Assembly: GCF_000008665.1 (NCBI RefSeq)
Contig: NC_000917.1
Coordinates: forward strand, 1,320,001-1,352,000
Reading direction: 5' to 3'
DNA length: 32,000 nucleotides
DNA from: Archaeoglobus fulgidus DSM 4304
GTDB taxonomy: Archaea > Halobacteriota > Archaeoglobi > Archaeoglobales > Archaeoglobaceae
The notes beneath the pieces were generated by a model. It saw only the letters and a list, made by a program, of their open reading frames with translations, made no database searches and was not told where the DNA came from. A program made the position numbers and the translations under genes. Below are positions 12,422 to 21,405 of the stretch, one piece after another; position 1 is the first letter of the stretch; each line of letters opens with the position of its first letter.

Positions 12422-13885
12422 CTATCTCTCCCACGTCTTCCTTAAAAACTCCCTTATCACTTCCGACTCAATCCATCCCCTGTCAAGGTCCCTGATGAGC
12501 TTCTCAATCCTCTTTACCTGCTCGATAATCTTCTTCCTGACTTTCTCGTCTTCAACCTCCATTTCTGTTATGAGCTGCAAGGCTGCGAGTGGATTGCGGA
12601 TGTGGTCAACGAGAATGGCGAACTGCTCGATGTTCCTCTCAATCTGCTCGTAGGCGAGAAACTTCTCCTCTTCGAGCTGAATGGCGTTCAGGGCAAAAGC
12701 CACGTCTGCTGAGAGCGTAGTTAGAATTTCAACCTCGTCTTCGGAGAAGGGTCTGTCCGAGTGGATTATAATGACTCCCTTAACCTTTTCATCGTAAACC
12801 ATGGGAATCGTGAGGGCATAAAAGCTGCCATGAACGCTGATGTGCTTGCAGCCCTTTATGTGCCTGTCAGGTTCAAGTCTCACGGTTCTCTTGCTTGTAA
12901 TGGCCTCCTTTACGCACTCAGAACCCTCAGCACCCTTTGGATAGAAGACCATCTCGCCATCCTTAGCCACTCCGACGAAAACTGAGGGGTAAAATTCCGA
13001 GAGCTTTTCCACTATTGCTTCAACAAGGTCGTCTGCATCCCTCTCTCTGACAAGAAGGTCGTTGATGTCGTTGACAATTCTCAAAAGCCTGTTCAGCCTT
13101 TTAATCTCCTCCTCATACTCCTTTCTCTTGGTTACATCTCTCGCTATCCCCTGAACCCCCACCAGCTTTCCATTCTCGTAAATCGGTCTTGTTTTCACTT
13201 CAAGCCACAGCAATCTTCCATCCTTGGTTTTGCATAGAACCTCGAAGGGCTCTTCATTTGGCTCGCTCTGAAGAGTTCTTTTCATTCTCTCTTTTACGAG
13301 TTCAGCAGAATCGCCTACCAGCACATCCCAGATGGTAAGCTTTCCAAGGTCTTCAAGAGAGTAGCCGAATCCCTCTATTGCTGCTCTGTTTACGGCTGTG
13401 AACCTCCCCTCAAGGTCGTGGACATAAAGAAAGTCATTGGCGTTTTCCCATAAGTCTCTATACCTTCTTTCACTTTCCTCAAGCTTTCTGTAGGCTTCTT
13501 CTATCTCTTTCTCCCTTTTCTTCTTCTCAATAGCGTTTTTCACAGCCAGCGGGAGGCGGCGAATGTGCTTGGGCGATTTTAGAACGTAGTCGTCGAATCC
13601 CTCTTTCATCGCCTCAACAGCAATTTCCTCATCGCCTGTCAGTGTGAGCATAATCACTGGCGTAAAGGGCGAAACCTGCTTTACAGCCTTTAAAACGTCG
13701 AAGCCTGTCCCCCACCTCAGCCTGTAGTCGGTGATGACAGCATCAAAGTTGAAGTTTTCGAGAGCTTTCTCCAGATCCTCTTTTGAGAGTATTTCAACCA
13801 CTTCCAAATCCGCAAACTCTTTTTTAAGCTCTCTCACAGCCAGAATTCTGTCATCCGGGTTGTCATCGGCTATAAGTATTCTCAT
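12422..13885 (-). CDS. Response-regulator receiver - PAS - GAF - DHp (H-box) protein lacking an ATPase domain.
   Basis: REC: MRILIADDNPDD, VITDYRL, MLTLTG, VLKSP. PAS: ENANDFLYVHDLEGRFTAVNRAA..GIARDVTKRK. A GAF-like region follows. The C-terminal H-box FAILVDHIRNPLAAL is followed by only about 55 aa. ATG 13885 (GGAGGT SD) is preferred over 13906. Confidence 0.8.
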   Translation of the reverse strand: MRILIADDNPDDRILAVRELKKEFADLEVVEILSKEDLEKALENFNFDAVITDYRLRWGTGFDVLKAVKQVSPFTPVIMLTLTGDEEIAVEAMKEGFDDYVLKSPKHIRRLPLAVKNAIEKKKREKEIEEAYRKLEESERRYRDLWENANDFLYVHDLEGRFTAVNRAAIEGFGYSLEDLGKLTIWDVLVGDSAELVKERMKRTLQSEPNEEPFEVLCKTKDGRLLWLEVKTRPIYENGKLVGVQGIARDVTKRKEYEEEIKRLNRLLRIVNDINDLLVRERDADDLVEAIVEKLSEFYPSVFVGVAKDGEMVFYPKGAEGSECVKEAITSKRTVRLEPDRHIKGCKHISVHGSFYALTIPMVYDEKVKGVIIIHSDRPFSEDEVEILTTLSADVAFALNAIQLEEEKFLAYEQIERNIEQFAILVDHIRNPLAALQLITEMEVEDEKVRKKIIEQVKRIEKLIRDLDRGWIESEVIREFLRKTWER

Positions 13886-13886
13886 C

Positions 13887-14288
13887 TCAAACCTCCGGTT
13901 TCTCATTAAGAATTAGCCAGTAAATATTCATATGTTTGGTGAGATTCAGTAAATCCTCAAAGCGGACAGGCTTCACAAGGTAGGAGTTTGCTCCGAGGTC
14001 GTAAGCTCTGTTTATGTCCTCTCCATTTCTTGATGAAGTTAAAACAACCACGGGAATCCTCTTCAGCCTTTCCTTCGATTTAACCCACTTCAGAACTTCA
14101 AAACCCGAAACCTTTGGAAGCTTTAAGTCAAGGAGAATCAGCACGGGCTTGTTTTCTTGCAGGTAGCTTATCGCCTCCTCCCCATCCTTCGCCACATCAA
14201 GGGGATTGATTATCTTGGCCTTCTCAAAAGCCCTCTTAATCATGAAAACATCGTCTGGATTATCCTCAACCAGCAGGATTCTGTCCAT
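13887..14288 (-). CDS. Single-domain CheY-like response regulator (Rcp1-like subfamily).
   Basis: MDRILLVEDNPDDVFMIKRAF...LILLDLKLPKVSGFEVL...RIPVVVLTSS...YLVKP...IYWLILNEKP. The track ORF extends 41 codons upstream, but MDRILLVED (ATG 14288) with an A/T-rich box about 45 nt upstream is the plausible start. Confidence 0.85.
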   Translation of the reverse strand: MDRILLVEDNPDDVFMIKRAFEKAKIINPLDVAKDGEEAISYLQENKPVLILLDLKLPKVSGFEVLKWVKSKERLKRIPVVVLTSSRNGEDINRAYDLGANSYLVKPVRFEDLLNLTKHMNIYWLILNEKPEV

Positions 14289-14386
14289 CTTCACACCTCT
14301 GATTATCCTGCGATTGACACTATCCCATTCAAAATTAAATATTTTTCGTGTGATTACCGCTGCTCCGCCAACATAATCAAAAACTT

Positions 14387-15733
14387 TCAGACGACAAAGT
14401 AAACCCACCACTCCCTTTTCGCTCTGACATCAAAGCTTCCTTCAGCGACTCTGAACTCGCATCCAATTCTGAACTTCCCCCTGGCCTTCTTCAAAGCCCT
14501 CTCCACCTCCACAGCATTGCTCTCAACAATAATTTTCCTTTCCCTGATGTCGAAGAATATCCTGCCATCGTAAATCTCGGCAATGGCATTCCTGATTTCG
14601 TAGCTGTTCAAAATCTCACACCCCTCTCTCCAGTATCCTCCAGCGTAAATTTCTCTTCCTCTATCTTCGCCAACCTTTATGGGCATCCTCAGAATCTCTC
14701 TGTAAAGAGTTGGGGGATTTTTGCTCTCCAGAATCACCGCATCTCCCGTTTCAATGTTTATTCTTTCAGCATTGCACACCAGCAACTCCCCATAATACCT
14801 TTTGGTTCTCGTTAAGGGCTTGAAGTCCTCTCTGAAAACTGGAATGTTCAGCGGAAAGACGAAGAGGTTATCGCCTAAGCACAGACTGCTTGCAAAAGGC
14901 CCAATCTCACTGGAAACGTAGAGGTTGCACTTTTTCTTCACAAACCTGTTTATGAGCTCCCACCTCTTTTTTGTCAGGGATGAGAAGCTGAAGATGAAGG
15001 TCGCATTTTTGATTTTGTCCCAGAGCATGGCGTGTATTTCCTTTACAGCCTTCTCAAAGGTTAGTTTCAGAATTCTTCGCAAATCCTCGCCAATCTCACT
15101 TCTCACTGCTAAACTCGCCTTTAATCCCTTTGCCAGCAGATTTATGTCAGCCCACCTCGCTATGGTTGAGGCCGGAGCTGAAACCACATCAACTCTCTCC
15201 ATCTCAAGGATGGCGGAAAGAACATCGAGTCTCCTTGAATTCGGATATGTGGAGATTACGTAGTCGGCATCAAACATGGCCAAAGCCAGCCTTTGCGAGA
15301 ATTCCGATGACAGCAACGCGACGTTTCCATTCTCATCAACTCCATCCCCCTCCCTTCTCCCGGCAACAAATATCACCGTCCCTCCTCCTCCCTTCTCAAG
15401 CCCTGCAGAGTTGAAAATCGCATACATGCCCGGCATCCAGTTTTTAACAAGCATATCTCGGCTGAGAAGGTAATACTTTGGGCTTCCGGACGTTCCAGAG
15501 GTGTGGAGTATAACCGAGTTCTCAACGCCCTCCAGTGACTTCAGGGCGAAGCTGGCTGGATTTGCTGTCGTATTCGGGACTTCATCGAAATCCCTGCCCG
15601 TGTTTTTCCCAGCGAGCTCTTCAAACTCCTCTGCCGATAAATGGGGCCATTCACGCCACTCTGGCCTTTTAAAACTCACTGCATGGGCTATCTCTCTTAT
15701 TCTCTCCTGAACTTTACGGTCAAAGTCCATCAT
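14387..15733 (-). CDS. Adenylate-forming enzyme of the ANL superfamily, PaaK/coenzyme F390 synthetase-like.
   Basis: HTSGTSGSPKY matches the [ST]SG[ST][ST]GxPK adenylation motif. Its size (448 aa) and the later IETGDAV motif fit the PaaK/F390-synthetase branch. The start overlaps the tspO stop (ATGA). Confidence 0.65.
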   Translation of the reverse strand: MMDFDRKVQERIREIAHAVSFKRPEWREWPHLSAEEFEELAGKNTGRDFDEVPNTTANPASFALKSLEGVENSVILHTSGTSGSPKYYLLSRDMLVKNWMPGMYAIFNSAGLEKGGGGTVIFVAGRREGDGVDENGNVALLSSEFSQRLALAMFDADYVISTYPNSRRLDVLSAILEMERVDVVSAPASTIARWADINLLAKGLKASLAVRSEIGEDLRRILKLTFEKAVKEIHAMLWDKIKNATFIFSFSSLTKKRWELINRFVKKKCNLYVSSEIGPFASSLCLGDNLFVFPLNIPVFREDFKPLTRTKRYYGELLVCNAERINIETGDAVILESKNPPTLYREILRMPIKVGEDRGREIYAGGYWREGCEILNSYEIRNAIAEIYDGRIFFDIRERKIIVESNAVEVERALKKARGKFRIGCEFRVAEGSFDVRAKREWWVYFVV

Positions 15734-16191
15734 GCGTTCAGAAGATAGATGGCGAAGTTCAGGGCACTTGCAAACAGTATCCAGCCGAGATAGGGCAGGA
15801 GAAGCAATGAAGCCTTGGAGTGATGATAGATGTAAACAATCGTCAGTATTACGGCGATGTCCAGAGCGATAATGTCCACCAATCCGGCGAGAGGATTCTG
15901 GAGACCAAAGAAGAGGATAGACCAGAGGAAGTTGAGTCCGAGCTGCGTGAAGAATGTGGCTTTCACTCTGGAATCATTCCAGAACCCATTTTCCCATGCG
16001 ATGTAAAGAACTATCCCAATCAGGAAGTAGAGCAATGTCCAAGCTGGACCGAAAAGCCAGTTGGGGGGAGTGAAAAAGGGCTTTTCAACTCCTGCATACC
16101 AAGTCTGCACAGATTGAGCTGTGAAAAAGGAGCCAGCGAAACCTATTGCCAGAACTGCTAAGATGGATGCCACAAGCTTCAGTATGTTCAT
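15730..16191 (-). CDS. tspO: TspO/MBR family tryptophan-rich sensory protein (tetrapyrrole-binding membrane protein).
   Basis: 153 aa with 5 TMs and a Trp-rich sequence (WYAGVEKPFFTPPNWLFGPAWTLLY, WNDS.., LWSILFF), characteristic of TspO. Confidence 0.85.
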   Translation of the reverse strand: MNILKLVASILAVLAIGFAGSFFTAQSVQTWYAGVEKPFFTPPNWLFGPAWTLLYFLIGIVLYIAWENGFWNDSRVKATFFTQLGLNFLWSILFFGLQNPLAGLVDIIALDIAVILTIVYIYHHSKASLLLLPYLGWILFASALNFAIYLLNA

Positions 16192-16444
16192 GGGTATAGT
16201 TAAATTTAAAGTATAAAAGATTTGGCGAGGTTTTAAATTTACGAGTGCTTTTTAAAAAAGAAAAATCGCTTTCAATCGAGCTTAAAAGCCACTTTGCTTA
16301 ATGGAGGATAAGCTTTCGGGCTATAAGCTCGCTCAAAGCCAACTTCAAACTTTTTTACCTGAAAAGCCAAATGAAATTTCGGCCCTCGCTGTTCCAGAAA
16401 CCATAATATTCACGAAGCTACAAACTCATCAGAGGGGGTTTAAA

Positions 16445-16834
16445 ATGAAAATAAAAATGGTTAGCATTTACGTGGATGACGTCGAAAAAGCCTTTAGATT
16501 CTACACTGAGGTTTTAGGTTTTAAGGAAAAACTCCACACGCCAGAATACGGGCTTGCAATCGTTGTTTCCCCAGAAGATCCAGATGGGACTGCCCTTTTA
16601 CTCGAACCAAATGAAAATTCGATTGCAAAGAATTATCAGACCTCTCTCTTCAGGGCAGGGATACCGGTTATGGTTTTCGGGACAGATGACATTTACAGAG
16701 ATTACGAGAGGTTAAAGCAGAAGGGGGTTAAATTCAGAGGAGAGCCCCAGAAAACCGAGTGGGGATTGCAGGTTGATTTTGAGGACACATGCGGTAATTT
16801 AATAAGATTTCATCAGGATTTACAGGCTCGATAA
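16445..16834 (+). CDS. Glyoxalase/bleomycin-resistance/dioxygenase (VOC) family protein.
   Basis: MKIKMVSIYVDDVEKAFRFYTEVLGFKE...GVKFRGEPQKTEWGLQVDFEDTCGNLIRF. The start at ATG 16445 follows a G-rich SD, and the 48-codon upstream extension in the track looks non-coding. Confidence 0.8.
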   Translation: MKIKMVSIYVDDVEKAFRFYTEVLGFKEKLHTPEYGLAIVVSPEDPDGTALLLEPNENSIAKNYQTSLFRAGIPVMVFGTDDIYRDYERLKQKGVKFRGEPQKTEWGLQVDFEDTCGNLIRFHQDLQAR

Positions 16835-16866
16835 TGATTTAACTCGACGGGATTTACACCTCTATA

Positions 16867-17253
16867 ATGAAACTCCAAAACTACTTCAAAAATGGCAGGG
16901 TTTATGTCTGGAAAGAAACTTTTGCAATCGTAAAATCAAAGAAAGCCTGCCCCAATGCCTTTGCGAATATTGTTGATAAAAACGAAATAACTGTGATTAT
17001 AGAGCAGCCAAAAGTTAACGAAGATGATGTTATCGAAATTGAAAGGGGCTGGAAAATACTGACATTTGATATGGTGCTGCCCTTTGGACTGGTTGGATTT
17101 TTAGCGAAAATTTCTCAGGCTCTTGCGGATGAAAAAATTCCCATCTTTGTTATTTCCGCTTATTCAACAGACCACATTCTTGTGAGAGAAGAGGATTTAG
17201 CGAAGGCGGTGAAGAAACTTGAAAGTCTGGGTTTTGAGGTTGCGGAAAAATGA
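16867..17253 (+). CDS. ACT-domain protein (ACT_7/COG3603-like small-molecule binding protein).
   Basis: 128 aa. WKILTFDMVLPFGLVGFLAKISQALADEKIPIFVISAYSTDHILVREEDLAKAV is the typical C-terminal ACT fold signature. Confidence 0.65.
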   Translation: MKLQNYFKNGRVYVWKETFAIVKSKKACPNAFANIVDKNEITVIIEQPKVNEDDVIEIERGWKILTFDMVLPFGLVGFLAKISQALADEKIPIFVISAYSTDHILVREEDLAKAVKKLESLGFEVAEK

Positions 17254-17304
17254 AGCGAGTTAGGAAGTGGAAAACATTATAAACATAAACGTAAACATAC
17301 ACTT

Positions 17305-17520
17305 ATGCCAACCAAAACGATAACCATAACTCTCGAAGCCTACGAAAGATTGAAAAGAGAAAAAAGAGAGGGAGAGAGCTTCAGCGACGTTATAATCAGG
17401 CTCACAGAGAAAAGGAGAGATTTGCTTGAATTTGCCGGTAAATGGAAAGATTCTGGAGAGGAAATCGAGAAGATAATCTTAGAAGGCAGGAAGGAGTTCG
17501 ATAAACATGTTCTGTCTTGA
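17305..17520 (+). CDS. vapB: VapB-type antitoxin (type II TA).
   Basis: 71 aa. TITITLEAYERLKREKREGESFSDVIIRL. It overlaps the downstream PIN gene by 14 nt. An ATTATAAAC box lies 22-30 nt upstream (leaderless), followed by the direct repeats AAACAT-AAACGT-AAACAT. Confidence 0.75.
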   Translation: MPTKTITITLEAYERLKREKREGESFSDVIIRLTEKRRDLLEFAGKWKDSGEEIEKIILEGRKEFDKHVLS

Positions 17521-17899
17521 AACCACGTTTCTAATTGATCTGCTGAGAGGGAGAGATGAGGCATTGAAGTTCTACGCAAAAATTAGAGATTCGAAGCTAT
17601 ACACCACGTCCATTTCAGCGTGGGAGCTCCTAAGAGGGCCAAAGCTCATTGGGAAAGATAAAGAATTTGAAGTGGCTGTTGAGCTGCTTGAGAGTCTTGA
17701 TGTTCTTCCGTTCTCTTTCAATTCGGCAAAAATTGCCGTAGAAATTGAAAAAGATTTGAGAGAGAAAGGCATGGAAGTTAATCTAATAGACGTGCTCATT
17801 GCATCTGTTGCAATGGAACACAGTCTTAAACTTGTAACGAGAGATGAGCACTTCAGCAGGATAAAGGGGCTTGAAGTTGAAAGGTATCGCCCCGAATAA
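17507..17899 (+). CDS. vapC: PIN-domain ribonuclease toxin VapC.
   Basis: 130 aa. The N-terminal MFCLETTFLIDLLRG carries E in the place of the first acidic residue, followed by the later acidic residues (SAWELLRG, NLIDVLIASVA, LVTRDEHF), as expected for a PIN fold. Confidence 0.8.
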   Translation: MFCLETTFLIDLLRGRDEALKFYAKIRDSKLYTTSISAWELLRGPKLIGKDKEFEVAVELLESLDVLPFSFNSAKIAVEIEKDLREKGMEVNLIDVLIASVAMEHSLKLVTRDEHFSRIKGLEVERYRPE

Positions 17900-18014
17900 T
17901 TTGCGAACAGTTAATGGTGGTTACTGCAATTTCACTTTCTTCATCAATCAAGTTGTAAGTGGTTTCAACGCCTCTGAAGTAATCTATGATGATGCTCGTG
18001 TCAAGAACAATCAT
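17853..18014 (-). pseudogene. Truncated vapC. Only the N-terminal ~40 aa of a PIN domain remain, and the frame then runs antisense into the 3' end of the convergent vapC.
   Basis: ATG 18014 overlaps the TGA of the vapB gene 18011-18220 (ATGA). The ORF reads MIVLDTSIIIDYFRGVETTYNLIDEESEIAVTTI.., and recognisable PIN sequence ends about where the + strand vapC ends (17899). It is a 53-codon ORF and is absent from the 60-aa track. Confidence 0.6.
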
Positions 18015-18220
18015 ACCCTGAACCTCGCTGATTTCCTTGCGTTTAAGCTCTTTTCAATTTCATCGAGGACTTCACTGTCCTTCAAAACCCCGAAATACCT
18101 TCTAATGTCTGTTTTCTTTCTTTTCAATAGTTTTTCTATCACATCGCTGAAGCTATCCTCTTCGTCTTTCATTTCAAGAAGCTTCCTGTAAACATCGTCT
18201 CTTATCGAAATAGTTTTCAT
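18011..18220 (-). CDS. vapB: VapB-type antitoxin, a paralog of 17305-17520. It is now orphaned beside a truncated toxin.
   Basis: MKTISIRDDVYRKLLEMKDEEDSFSDVIEKLL shares the ..SFSDVI..L core with the other VapB. A TATA-like ATATATATTTATT box and an ATGCAT palindrome lie just upstream. Confidence 0.7.
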   Translation of the reverse strand: MKTISIRDDVYRKLLEMKDEEDSFSDVIEKLLKRKKTDIRRYFGVLKDSEVLDEIEKSLNARKSARFRV

Positions 18221-18675
18221 GCATTAATATATGCATACACGAATAAATATATATCTTTTCTGATGTTGGACAAAACCATTGAGTAGAGAGAGTACTTTAA
18301 TAAAACTTTGCCAAGTCACCCACAGGAATTCTGGAATCTTTGCCCCTTTCGACGATCTTCTGAACCTTTGAATGCCAAGAAATGCAAGAACAACTACGCC
18401 TGCATCAAGGGAGTAGGAGGTCGAAAAAGTTACAACACTTAAGCAAATTTTGGCTCTCCTTTCAAGTTCGCTCGTGTCCACATCCTGACGCTGGTATCAA
18501 GGCATATCATCCGAGTTCCTCCGCAATTTTCCTGTTAATCTAATTGAGATAACCGCCTCAGCAGTTTCCTTACTGAATTTTCCTGAAAACTCCTTTAATG
18601 ATTTCCCGGCTTTCATAACTTCACCGGAAATAAATCCCGATAAAGAGTGCAAATACCTTCCACCATCCCATAAAC

Positions 18676-21405
18676 TCAGCCCCTCTCAAGCTCAATCCAG
18701 AAAATGCTGCCTTCTCCCGGCTTCGACCTCACCCCATATCTGCCTCCCATAACCTCCATGGCCTTTTTGACAATCGCCAAACCAACTCCAGTTCCGGGAT
18801 AAACCTCCTCGCCATGAAGCCTTTCGAAGATGTTGAAGATTTTCTCGTGATACTCTTCAGGAATGCCTATGCCGTTGTCCTTAACGTAAACTCTCACCTT
18901 CCCGTTGACATCTTCAGCCCACACCTTAACCTCTGGCCTCACCCCCTCCTCAACAAACTTGATGGCATTGCTTATCAGGTTGAGCATTACCGTAAAGAGG
19001 AGCTTCCTGTCCCCCTTCACCGCTGGAAGCTTTTCAATTTCAATAACAGCGGACTTCCCCCTTATCTCATCCTTAAGGTAATCGAGCACGTCCTCAACAA
19101 TCAGATTGAGGTCAACCCTTCTAACCTCAGCCTTTGCCTTGGAAACCCTCGCATACTCAAGCAGGTCGTTGATGAGGCCATCCATCTTTTCCGTTAGAGC
19201 TTTAAGCCTCGAAAGGTAGAACCTCGCATCCTCTTCAAGCTTCTCCCCGTAATCCTCAACAAGTGCTGAAACATACCCCTGCAAATTCCTCAATGGAGCC
19301 CTCAAATCGTGTGAAATTGCATGGACATAAGCCTCAAGCTCTTCGTTGGCTTTCCTAAGCTCCTCAAGAGTTTGCTTAAGCTTCTCCTCAGCCATCTTCC
19401 TGTCGGTTATGTCAATCATCGCCCCAACAATCCTCACAAGGTTCCCCTTCTCGTCGTAAATGGGTGCTGGAGAGACGAGAACATGGAACCTCGACCCATC
19501 CTTTTTCACAAGCTCGGCCTCAACAACATCCCCATAGAGCTTGTGCTCTTTATGCAGTCTTATCCTCTCAGCCAGCCATTCCCTTTGTTCGGGAGCAATC
19601 GGGTCGAACATCGTCATCTTTCCAACAACCTCATCTCTCGAATAACCTGACATTTCAAGAAGGCGGTCGTTGACGAATCTGAAGACACCATTGCTATCAG
19701 CCTCCCAGAAGGCAACGATTGGCGACTCAACAAGCAGTCTGTATCTTTTTTCGCTTTCCGCAAGCTGTTTCGTTCTCTCCTCGACAAGTTTTTCCAGTTC
19801 CTGAGTGTATTTTTCGAGTTCCTGTCTCATTTTTTCTCTTTCTGTAATATCAACCGATACCCCGACAATTGCGGGTTTACCCCTCAGTATGACTCTTGAG
19901 CCATAGGCGTCGATAATTCTCACTTCACCACTCTTAGTCAGAACTCTGAGTCTGTAATTGACATGATTCTTTTCACCAAGAATTCTGGCTCTGTAATTCC
20001 TTTCAAATTTTTCCCTGTCATCCGGGTGGATGAAATCTACTGGACTCTTTCCTATCAGTTCCTCCCTTTCATAGCCCAATATTTCTGCAAACTTTTCGTT
20101 GACATAGACAAAAACCCCCTCTTGAATTATGTCAATGCCCACCTGAGAATGTTCTGCAAGCTTCCTGAACTTTTCCTCACTCTCCTCAAGCTCCTCCCTC
20201 ATCCTCGCACTCCTTATTGCGAGGGCAACAGAATGAGCAACCTCCATCAGAATCTGAATTGTTTCCTCATCAAAGGCATCCTCTTCTTCAGAAGGAACGT
20301 TTATTGAGCCAAGAAGGGAATCTGAAACTATAGGAATGAGGGCGTAGGATTTAATTCCAAGCTCCATCAGCCTCCTCTCTCCCTCCCCCCTGCCTTCAAC
20401 TCTTTTCACCCACGGCTTTCCCTGTGAGAGCGTTTGCATCACCTTTGCCACGTCCTCTCCCGCTATCATCTCACCCTCTCTGAATCCGGGCATCTTTTTG
20501 TCAGTCACAGCCACAACCCTCGCTCTGCCATTCTCGAAAACTGTTATTCCCACCCCCCTTACTGGAAGCATCTCAGCCAGCTTTTCAGCAGTCATCTTCA
20601 GAATCTCTTCAGTTTCATCAGCAGAGAGAATTGCCCTCTCGACCTCATGCAGAAGCAGGTTGGCTTTGTAAAGCCTTTCCAGCCTTCTCTCCATTCTCTT
20701 GAAGTCTGTTATGTCAAATGCGAGATGCACAACCTTTCTCAGCTCTCCGTCAATGAAAATTGGCGTGGTGCTGACCGCATACATTCTGCCAAAAATCTCA
20801 ATCTCCCTCGTCTCTGGTTTATGGTTCCTGAACGTTGCAACACATGGGCAGTTCTCCGCTGGCTCCTCCCTGCCGTGGAAAACTTTATAGCATTTTTTAC
20901 CGATGGCATTCTCTATGCCCTGCTCCCTGAAGATTTTCTGAGCATATCTGTTCGCATGCAAAATCTCAAACTCTGGAGAAATCACCACGATGGGATGGGC
21001 GATTGTCTCGAAGAGGGTGCCAAGCTCGATCTCCATAATCCTTGCGTGCTCTTCAAGCTGTAGTGCTTGCTTTCTCGCCCTCAGAAGAATCTCTATTCTT
21101 GCAAGAAGCTCAAGCTTATCTACTGGCTCAATAATTAGCTCGTCAACTCTCTTCCAGAGGTGTTTCTCCGCAATTTTCAAATCCTTCCTTGTCGTAACAA
21201 GCAGAACTGGCAGAAAAGCTCTGCTTTCAGCCTTAATTCTCTCTATCTCCCTCCACTTCCGCTTAAGCGTAACTCCATCAATAATCAGCAAGTCAAAGTT
21301 ATCCTCCGCTATCTCGTATCTTTTGCCCAGAAAGTCAACGAGCATCTTTCTGTTCTGCTCGTTTGAAATGTCAATTCGAATCCTCATCTCTTCCAACACC
21401 ATCAA
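18676..21405 (-). CDS. Multi-domain sensor histidine kinase: degenerate N-terminal receiver, several PAS domains, a GAF domain, HisKA and HATPase_c.
   Basis: REC-like N-terminus ([19 protein letters not shown]). The first PAS carries a Cys/His cluster ([18 protein letters not shown]). At least two further PAS domains end in DITERE/DITDRK. H-box [12 protein letters not shown] box [10 protein letters not shown] boxes DNGIGIP and GTGVGLAIV. Confidence 0.9.

Follow-up and report, generated by a model that had tools for sequence, protein, structure and literature searches.

Archaeoglobus fulgidus DSM 4304 carries, on the minus strand of a 32,000-nucleotide (nt) stretch of its chromosome (NC_000917.1, positions 1,320,001 to 1,352,000; hereafter the window, numbered from its first letter), four co-directional open reading frames (ORFs) that had been proposed in an earlier note to form a single ligand-sensing His-Asp relay. 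In order of transcription these encode a TspO membrane protein (tspO, 15730-16191), a 448-amino-acid (aa) protein resembling the ANL superfamily of adenylate-forming enzymes (14387-15733), a stand-alone receiver (REC, 13887-14288) and a 487-aa REC-PAS-GAF-HisKA-like protein (12422-13885). The combined relay is not supported, because the receiver module is kept together with a histidine kinase in related loci and the tspO-ANL cassette is absent from one of them. Instead, the four genes probably make up two independent transcription units, which have become neighbours through lineage-specific rearrangement.

The arrangement in a close, Archaeoglobus-like relative (L085) is informative. Here a 903-aa kinase, 86% identical to a kinase encoded further upstream in the window, lies upstream of a receiver gene (product 93% identical to that of the window) and a REC-PAS-GAF-HisKA gene (60%), and an ACT-domain gene is also present. 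When the two loci are compared by blastn, they align over the kinase gene (84%), the ACT gene (86%) and two shorter pieces, namely a VapB remnant of 76 nt and 149 nt from the 5' region of a glyoxalase gene. The alignment on one flank of the break covers 16526-16384 at 78.5% identity, and on the other it covers the receiver pair (14278-12606) at 71%. Between these flanks lies a 2.1-kb indel (14279-16383), which takes in tspO with its putative promoter, the ANL gene and most of the 98 nt that lie ahead of REC; L085 carries 333 unrelated nt in its place. No meaningful direct or inverted repeats, as a signature of a mobile element, were found to flank the 2.1-kb cassette.

Other lineages show a similar association. 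In L086/L087 and L175/L176 the gene that follows directly on a kinase orthologue (48-53% identity) is that of the REC-PAS-GAF-HisKA protein, and only in L177 does this gene have no kinase beside it. Among the contexts recovered for the ANL gene (163), for TspO (7) and for the REC-PAS-GAF-HisKA gene (8), no locus holds both units, so that the four-gene cluster of the earlier note has no counterpart among them. As judged from these comparisons, the conserved module appears to be the kinase, with or without the stand-alone REC, and the REC-PAS-GAF-HisKA protein. In A. fulgidus an indel-prone stretch, containing a VapBC pair, an orphan VapB, the ACT and glyoxalase genes and tspO-ANL, would then part the kinase from its probable partners. 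The comparative data essentially indicate that the receiver genes, which had been thought bound to tspO-ANL, are regulated independently of them, and that their cognate kinase, likely the one some 4.4 kb upstream in the window, is encoded elsewhere; the earlier note had itself named such a result as one that would speak against its reading.

Gene layout and junctions

An A/T-rich, TATA-like box (16201-16218, minus strand) lies 10-27 nt 5' of the tspO ATG and may drive transcription of tspO and the ANL gene as a leaderless or short-leader mRNA. A near-identical box precedes tspO in a second Archaeoglobus sp. (L005), and an A/T-rich box does so in a further locus (L002). The stop codon of tspO and the start codon of the 448-aa gene overlap in ATGA (gcATGAtgg, 15733-15730). 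Every orthologue of the 448-aa protein opens with M-x-DFD, and the first ATG is therefore taken as its true start.

The stop codon of the ANL gene (14387) is separated from the REC ATG (14288) by a gap of 98 nt (14386-14289). Archaeal transcription can terminate at oligo-T tracts, and a T5 run on the minus strand (14379-14383), 4 nt past the ANL stop codon, is a possible terminator of this kind. Further into the gap there is an A/T box, AAAAATATTTAATTTT (14346-14331, minus strand), 43-58 nt 5' of the REC ATG, which is a putative B-recognition element (BRE)/TATA sequence for the REC operon; it is followed by a Shine-Dalgarno-like GAGGTG (14294-14299, minus strand) 5' of the REC start. The REC stop codon (TGA, 13889-13887) is one nt from the ATG of the 487-aa gene at 13885, a start that alignment of orthologues favours over an upstream ATG at 13906. 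The 487-aa ORF ends 89 nt short of a convergent MatE gene. No Rfam elements were found in the window between 11000 and 19000. The earlier note had thus read these junctions correctly, as regards the overlap, the 98-bp gap with its A/T-rich box and the 1-nt spacing of the receiver pair.

The receiver pair of L085 has the same 1-nt stop/start spacing. An A/T-rich box is also found there at a similar distance from REC, as is a Shine-Dalgarno sequence, with no ANL gene before it, and so the pair appears to keep its own signals. This bears on the suggestion that insertion of the cassette has led to partial read-through or co-regulation in A. fulgidus only, without any biochemical coupling of the two units. 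Such a lineage-specific recruitment would be in keeping with the short gap, the shared strand and a T5 run that is the only candidate terminator, as well as with the persistence of the arrangement in A. fulgidus strains or metagenome-assembled genomes (MAGs) at 98-99% identity (P0001, P0091). With an A/T box and a Shine-Dalgarno sequence before REC, and an A/T-rich box kept in L085 where nothing could be read through from an ANL gene, it is nevertheless unlikely.

The receiver pair and its probable kinase

The 133-aa receiver is matched by Pfam Response_reg (E 3e-24), and its acceptor residues (E8/D9, D53, a Thr/Ser and a Lys) look intact when compared by eye with the canonical positions. Its best ten matches in the PDB (E 1e-32 to 3e-20) include 5brj (1e-32), 5ic5, 6xvu, 8avv, RcpA (1k68), Rcp1 (1i3c) and RcpB; 8avv is a bacteriophytochrome-response regulator fusion, while the entries 5brj, 5ic5 and 6xvu carry no description beyond that of a response regulator. 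The resemblance to Rcp1-type regulators proposed earlier is therefore real, RcpA, Rcp1 and 8avv being among these best matches. Like Rcp1, RcpA, RcpB and the bacteriophytochrome regulators, the receiver of the window is a single-domain CheY-like protein. The likeness does not extend to the sensor. In contrast to the Rcp1 systems, those genes of the window that were scanned include no phytochrome (PAS_2-GAF-PHY), and the probable kinase is instead a GAF-PAS-PAS HisKA protein.

According to Pfam, the 487-aa protein consists of Response_reg, PAS (generic, PF00989 and related), GAF and HisKA domains. Neither PAS_2 (PF08446) nor PHY (PF00360) was detected in it at E<=0.01. It is therefore not a sensor of the phytochrome class, but one with generic PAS and GAF domains only. 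HATPase_c was not found in it by Pfam, and none is recorded in its orthologues. All six full-length orthologues are ~488 aa long and lack HATPase, and thus the gene is not a truncation.

The earlier note had described the protein as ending in an H-box. The REC-PAS-GAF-HisKA architecture stands, but the H-box is nominal. The region reads VDHIRNPL in the window and VDQ, VDR, IDK or IDG followed by IRNPL in the orthologues; the His is replaced by Gln, Arg, Lys or Gly in all six full-length orthologues, while the preceding Asp is invariant. Counting back without gaps from RxPL, on the canonical pattern H-[ED]-L-R-x-P-L, it is this Asp that occupies the position of the phospho-acceptor. When aligned with the DHp segments of kinases using hmmalign, the His of the window protein is placed at the acceptor position only by means of a one-residue gap. 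Comparison of the HisKA-like tail with PDB sequences by phmmer gave nothing but coiled-coil noise. As the His varies and an invariant Asp stands at the acceptor position, a relay histidine does not appear to be a conserved feature of this protein. The HATPase-less Archaeoglobus proteins (P0093-P0120; window 12422-12700) share NIEQFAxLVDxIRNPL, and a His directly after the invariant Asp is seen only in the window protein and in P0112.

REC-PAS/GAF-HisKA proteins without HATPase have been described previously, with AF_1472 of A. fulgidus as an example; no member of the class has been studied and their partners are unknown (Galperin et al. 2018, PMC5847659). The 487-aa protein has the architecture of AF_1472 and comes from the same organism, from which we infer that it is AF_1472. 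Two things can be added to what was known of this class: the HisKA-like motif varies at its His from one orthologue to another, and one particular kinase of ~900 aa is found in synteny with the gene in three lineages. A kinase can thereby be nominated for a class that has not been studied, and the HisKA-like domain should not be presumed to bear a relay histidine.

In the window this kinase is a ~903-aa GAF-PAS-PAS-HisKA-HATPase protein (Pfam), encoded on the minus strand at about 18676-21387 (up to 21405), ~4.4 kb upstream of the receiver pair, and it is likely, by virtue of its position in the relatives, to be the cognate kinase of both receiver proteins. The first PAS domain contains a Cys/His motif (residues ~172-188), whose Cys and His positions are kept in the orthologues of L085 (86% identity) and L086 (48%); this suggests a site for a metal, a cofactor or redox chemistry. 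Pfam gives no Response_reg match in the first ~110 aa of the kinase, although they look receiver-like.

Taken together, the Rcp1-like receiver and the REC-PAS-GAF-HisKA-like protein may be seen as the downstream half of a conserved two-component module. The cytoplasmic kinase would sense its signal through GAF and PAS domains and phosphorylate the 133-aa receiver as well as the receiver domain of the 487-aa protein. In the latter protein this signal would be combined with the input of its own PAS and GAF domains, and the output would take the form of contacts with other proteins. Its HisKA-like domain, with no ATPase partner and no conserved His, most likely serves in dimerisation, partner binding or phosphatase activity rather than in the relay; roles of these types have also been suggested by Galperin et al. 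(PMC5847659).

This is difficult to reconcile with the scheme of the earlier note, whereby a ligand that is bound by TspO, and that the ANL enzyme adenylates or conjugates, is sensed by the PAS/GAF domains and signalled via the H-box and the Rcp1-like receiver. Tight packing of four co-directional genes, a receiver whose family includes partners of tetrapyrrole-binding phytochromes, and the presence of a His in the A. fulgidus VDHIRNPL all lend that scheme some appeal. It is very improbable, however, given that L085 is otherwise syntenic without the cassette, that the receiver pair is found beside tspO-ANL in no relative, that it has its own promoter-like box and Shine-Dalgarno sequence, and that the sensor has neither a PAS_2 or PHY domain nor a conserved acceptor His, its canonical register placing the invariant Asp there. 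The receiver module belongs to a class already described, and a combined tetrapyrrole-sensing phosphorelay does not stand.

TspO and the adenylate-forming enzyme

The 153-aa product of tspO is a TspO/MBR protein, as had been recognized from its sequence. It matches Pfam TspO_MBR (PF03073) with an E-value of 3.1e-45 and 153.9 bits, against a cut-off of 24, over profile positions 2-145 of 145, and residues 15-152 are similar to TspO proteins of solved structure, namely mouse TSPO (2mgy, 1.8e-21), RsTspO (4uc1) and BcTspO (4ryi). A crude hydropathy count gives four to five transmembrane (TM) segments for the orthologues in L002 and L005. In its full-length Pfam match it is like Rhodobacter TspO, Bacillus cereus TspO and mammalian TSPO; at 91.7 bits, compared with a cut-off of 180, it falls below the NCBIfam equivalog for alphaproteobacterial TspO. 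What sets tspO of the window apart from described TspO/MBR genes is its apparent translational coupling to the gene of an adenylating enzyme, a pairing for which no description was found in the literature. TspO is ancient and has been much investigated; to our knowledge, what it does biochemically in prokaryotes is nevertheless a matter of debate, and for archaea no role has been described.

The identical 4-nt ATGA overlap is found in L005, where TspO and the ANL protein are 91% and 86% identical to those of the window, and in L002, where identity is 65% and 57%, respectively. In L002 the pair sits between a MarR-type gene and that of RNase HII, the latter downstream of the ANL gene. Maintenance of the overlap in two further lineages supports the view that tspO and the ANL-type gene are a coupled pair. 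In a neighbour-joining tree the TspO-linked genes are paraphyletic inside the clade of short-form ANL proteins, and hence the linkage is probably ancestral in this clade and would have been lost in the lineage of L001, L004, L008 and L095, which has the ANL-like enzyme without TspO.

The synteny of tspO with this enzyme, which the earlier note had put forward as a check, is therefore upheld only in part: the same overlap recurs in L002 and L005, but of the 163 other loci of the family no more than these two have TspO next to the ANL-family gene. Searches by tblastn and hidden Markov model (HMM) found no TspO in the flanks of the remaining 161, which comprise 80 genome loci, 80 metagenome loci and L003; the metagenome loci came from an alignment-based scan, a single-protein scan having given none.

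The closest TspO orthologues in other Archaeoglobaceae (L088-L094, 61-66% identity) are found in different surroundings. In L092-L094 the gene is immediately downstream of SdhABCD, in L088, L089 and L091 it lies between thiolase and acyl-CoA dehydrogenase genes, and in L090 it follows a GT4 glycosyltransferase gene. The gene context of TspO in Archaeoglobaceae thus appears to be fluid.

The 448-aa protein belongs to no annotated family. A Pfam scan gave no match, AMP-binding (PF00501) and GH3 (PF03321) included, at gathering score, and the sole NCBIfam match is a weak one to FadD over the P-loop (residues 49-101). Below threshold, some relatives are matched by GH3 (best 0.0023) and AMP-binding (0.08). 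Family profiles of 12 and 49 sequences found no relevant ANL relative among PDB sequences, and a search of 1.84 billion proteins recovered the ANL-like family itself only, as just 82 representative clusters, and no canonical ANL protein. Because sequence profiles reach no such protein, the ANL assignment rests on fold and motifs.

An AlphaFold (AF2) model of the protein (pLDDT 77.8, pTM 0.80) was compared with the PDB using Foldseek. The best matches are the PaaK-family ligases 6siy and 2y27 (E 1.7e-8, prob 1.0), with a TM-score of only ~0.4, and of the 129 matches at E<=1e-3 the best 50 are all adenylate-forming or related enzymes. A P-loop, HTSGTSGSPK, at residues 77-86 fits the A3 motif [ST]SG[ST][ST]GxPK. 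Across 49 diverse members of the family, H77, S79, G80, K86, Y272, V273, S275, E276, D331 and R349 are invariant; YVSSE, TGD and R349 are kept in the family, their equivalence to motifs A5, A7 and A8 being judged by eye. The fold match to PaaK ligases and the P-loop agree with the superfamily originally suggested, and the protein can be regarded, on the strength of its predicted structure and its motifs, as a very divergent PaaK/GH3-like member of ANL from a small unannotated family.

The protein has in common with the top Foldseek hits (PaaK1/2, NatL2, AjiA1, ClxA and the GH3 amido synthetases) a two-domain fold, and with PaaK/GH3 enzymes the TSGTSGxPK P-loop, YxxSE, TGD and a size of ~430-550 aa. 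Unlike the PaaK/GH3 enzymes, the ANL-like family has no Pfam or NCBIfam membership. It possesses a family-specific N-terminal helical region, M-x-DFD...W..W, together with invariant EFSQR and WxPGM motifs, it is confined to Asgard archaea, Archaeoglobaceae, Theionarchaea and a few others, and its genes are habitually paired with that of a membrane protein.

The family occurs in long and short forms. At the place expected for A10, long forms have a near-invariant PKGxLKKW, where the short Archaeoglobus form has RAKREWW. The short form (448-453 aa) is without ~60-100 residues of the Asgard long forms at the C-terminus (window 14387-14520), and the segment that it does not have includes the near-invariant VRxGxxPKGxLKKW, which may hold an A10-type lysine.

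Membrane partners of the enzyme family

Most members of the ANL-like family are from Asgard archaea (Promethearchaeota lineages), with some from Theionarchaea and Archaeoglobaceae and one from a Methylarchaceae MAG. In 37 of the genome loci the gene directly upstream of the ANL-like gene, and in the same orientation, encodes DUF6512, a ~180-aa polytopic membrane protein; among the metagenome loci this is so for 25 of the 63 that could be evaluated. The gaps are of 47-144 nt. This pairing spans several flanking contexts (e.g. L014, L042, L063 and L067). No literature on DUF6512 was found. In the long-form Archaeoglobaceae (L003:7436-10321, L006, L007, L009 and L010) the upstream gene is divergent and encodes a Cys-rich 4-TM protein of ~160 aa, for which no Pfam family was found; a 1-Cys peroxiredoxin gene lies immediately downstream of the ANL-like gene in these loci, with HSP20 nearby. 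Homology among DUF6512, the Cys-rich 4-TM protein and TspO was considered and rejected, as hhalign probabilities are 1% or less; the membrane partners are therefore non-homologous. An adjoining gene for a small membrane protein appears, across the loci compared, to be a habit of the ANL-like family, with TspO filling this slot in the Archaeoglobus clade. It is this pairing of an unannotated ANL-like family with small membrane proteins that is, to a modest extent, new here.

These observations help in judging whether the adjacency of tspO and the ANL gene might be one of chance, in which two unrelated genes have come to share 4 nt in a small clade and the ANL-like protein acts alone in the cytoplasm. 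The rarity of the TspO adjacency across the family, the other settings of the nearest TspO orthologues (beside SdhABCD, thiolase/acyl-CoA dehydrogenase or glycosyltransferase genes) and the enzymes of L001, L004, L008 and L095 without TspO would all be expected on this basis. A fortuitous adjacency would not be expected to keep its overlap down to 57-65% protein identity, nor to be present or absent as a unit, in another context in L002, nor to arise in a family with a recurrent co-directional gene for a small membrane protein immediately upstream, and we consider it quite improbable.

On the preferred reading of two separate units, tspO and the ANL gene would be expressed from the A/T box at 16218-16201 as a bicistronic, leaderless or short-leader mRNA whose translation is coupled. 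Using ATP, the enzyme would convert a carboxylate to an activated acyl-adenylate, which would then be passed to an acceptor. Its membrane partner may supply or hold a hydrophobic substrate, or may anchor or recruit the enzyme. Because small polytopic membrane proteins are habitually encoded beside members of the family, a hydrophobic ligand held by such a partner is most likely what the enzyme acts on or what recruits it. With TspO as the partner, the propionate of a tetrapyrrole (porphyrin) is an attractive putative substrate.

In this account the gene structure, domain content, predicted fold, synteny and indel are observed, while the promoters, the terminator, the chemistry of the enzyme, its ligand and the matching of kinase to receivers are inferred. 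Several points weigh against it. The gap between the ANL gene and REC is short and all four genes run in the same direction, so that some transcription may run on from the ANL gene into REC in A. fulgidus. The A. fulgidus 487-aa protein, unlike its orthologues, carries a His in the H-box region and could have gained a phospho-acceptor. The pairing of kinase and receivers is proposed from synteny only. L002, which has tspO-ANL, and L085, which has the kinase-REC genes, are different contigs from the same sample (DRR461309), with GC contents of 0.41 and 0.43, and need not derive from one organism. Finally, the chemistry assigned to the 448-aa enzyme is based on fold and motifs, HMM profiles finding no ANL relative, and the near-invariant Lys of the long-form C-terminal PKG is not obviously kept in the short Archaeoglobus form.

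In the Asgard loci (L011-L083 and L096-L174; e.g. L011:5326-10708) the ANL-like gene is part of a larger block. This includes a CxxCxxCC protein, membrane hexapeptide-repeat proteins and a Zn-ADH, then DUF6512 followed by the ANL-like gene, heliorhodopsin and DUF1761, and also AhpC/TSA-like, PNPOx-like, UvdE and CN-hydrolase proteins. UvdE and photoprotective genes have been noted before near heliorhodopsins in other phyla (PMC8612252). The neighbouring genes hint weakly at a theme of light or oxidative stress for the family.

A broader proposal can be built on this, namely that the proteins represent a new archaeal PaaK/GH3-like family with an obligate small-membrane partner and a part in the stress response. 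The partner would be DUF6512 in Asgard archaea, TspO, through non-homologous displacement, in the Archaeoglobus clade, and the Cys-rich 4-TM protein in other Archaeoglobaceae. A role in light or oxidative stress would follow from the heliorhodopsin, UvdE, PNPOx/FDOR-like and peroxiredoxin neighbours, and the A. fulgidus enzyme would adenylate a carboxylate bound by TspO. Taken as a whole, with all of its parts holding at once, this is conceivable yet doubtful. If it is true, with a substrate of the porphyrin propionate type, a prokaryotic TspO would for the first time have an enzyme as its partner, and with it a biochemical output that can be tested. A conserved and translationally coupled enzyme partner would be a concrete handle on TspO, through substrate screens and interaction tests. 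The family, which is invisible to Pfam and NCBIfam and in Asgard archaea is often encoded near heliorhodopsin and genes of UV or oxidative stress, may also mark an unexplored membrane-linked stress pathway.

The interval between the kinase gene and tspO (16301-18481) contains an orphan VapB gene (18011-18220, minus strand), a VapB-VapC pair (17305-17899, plus strand), the ACT-domain gene (16867-17253, plus strand) and a glyoxalase/VOC gene (16301-16834, plus strand). Of this, L085 keeps only the VapB remnant, the ACT gene and the glyoxalase 5' region described above, and the interval can thus be regarded as indel-prone. The glyoxalase ORF is 177 aa long, but the Pfam domain covers it only from residue 50 onwards; translation probably begins at an internal Met, at about residue 48-52, which would leave ~250 nt of divergent intergenic DNA between this gene and tspO.

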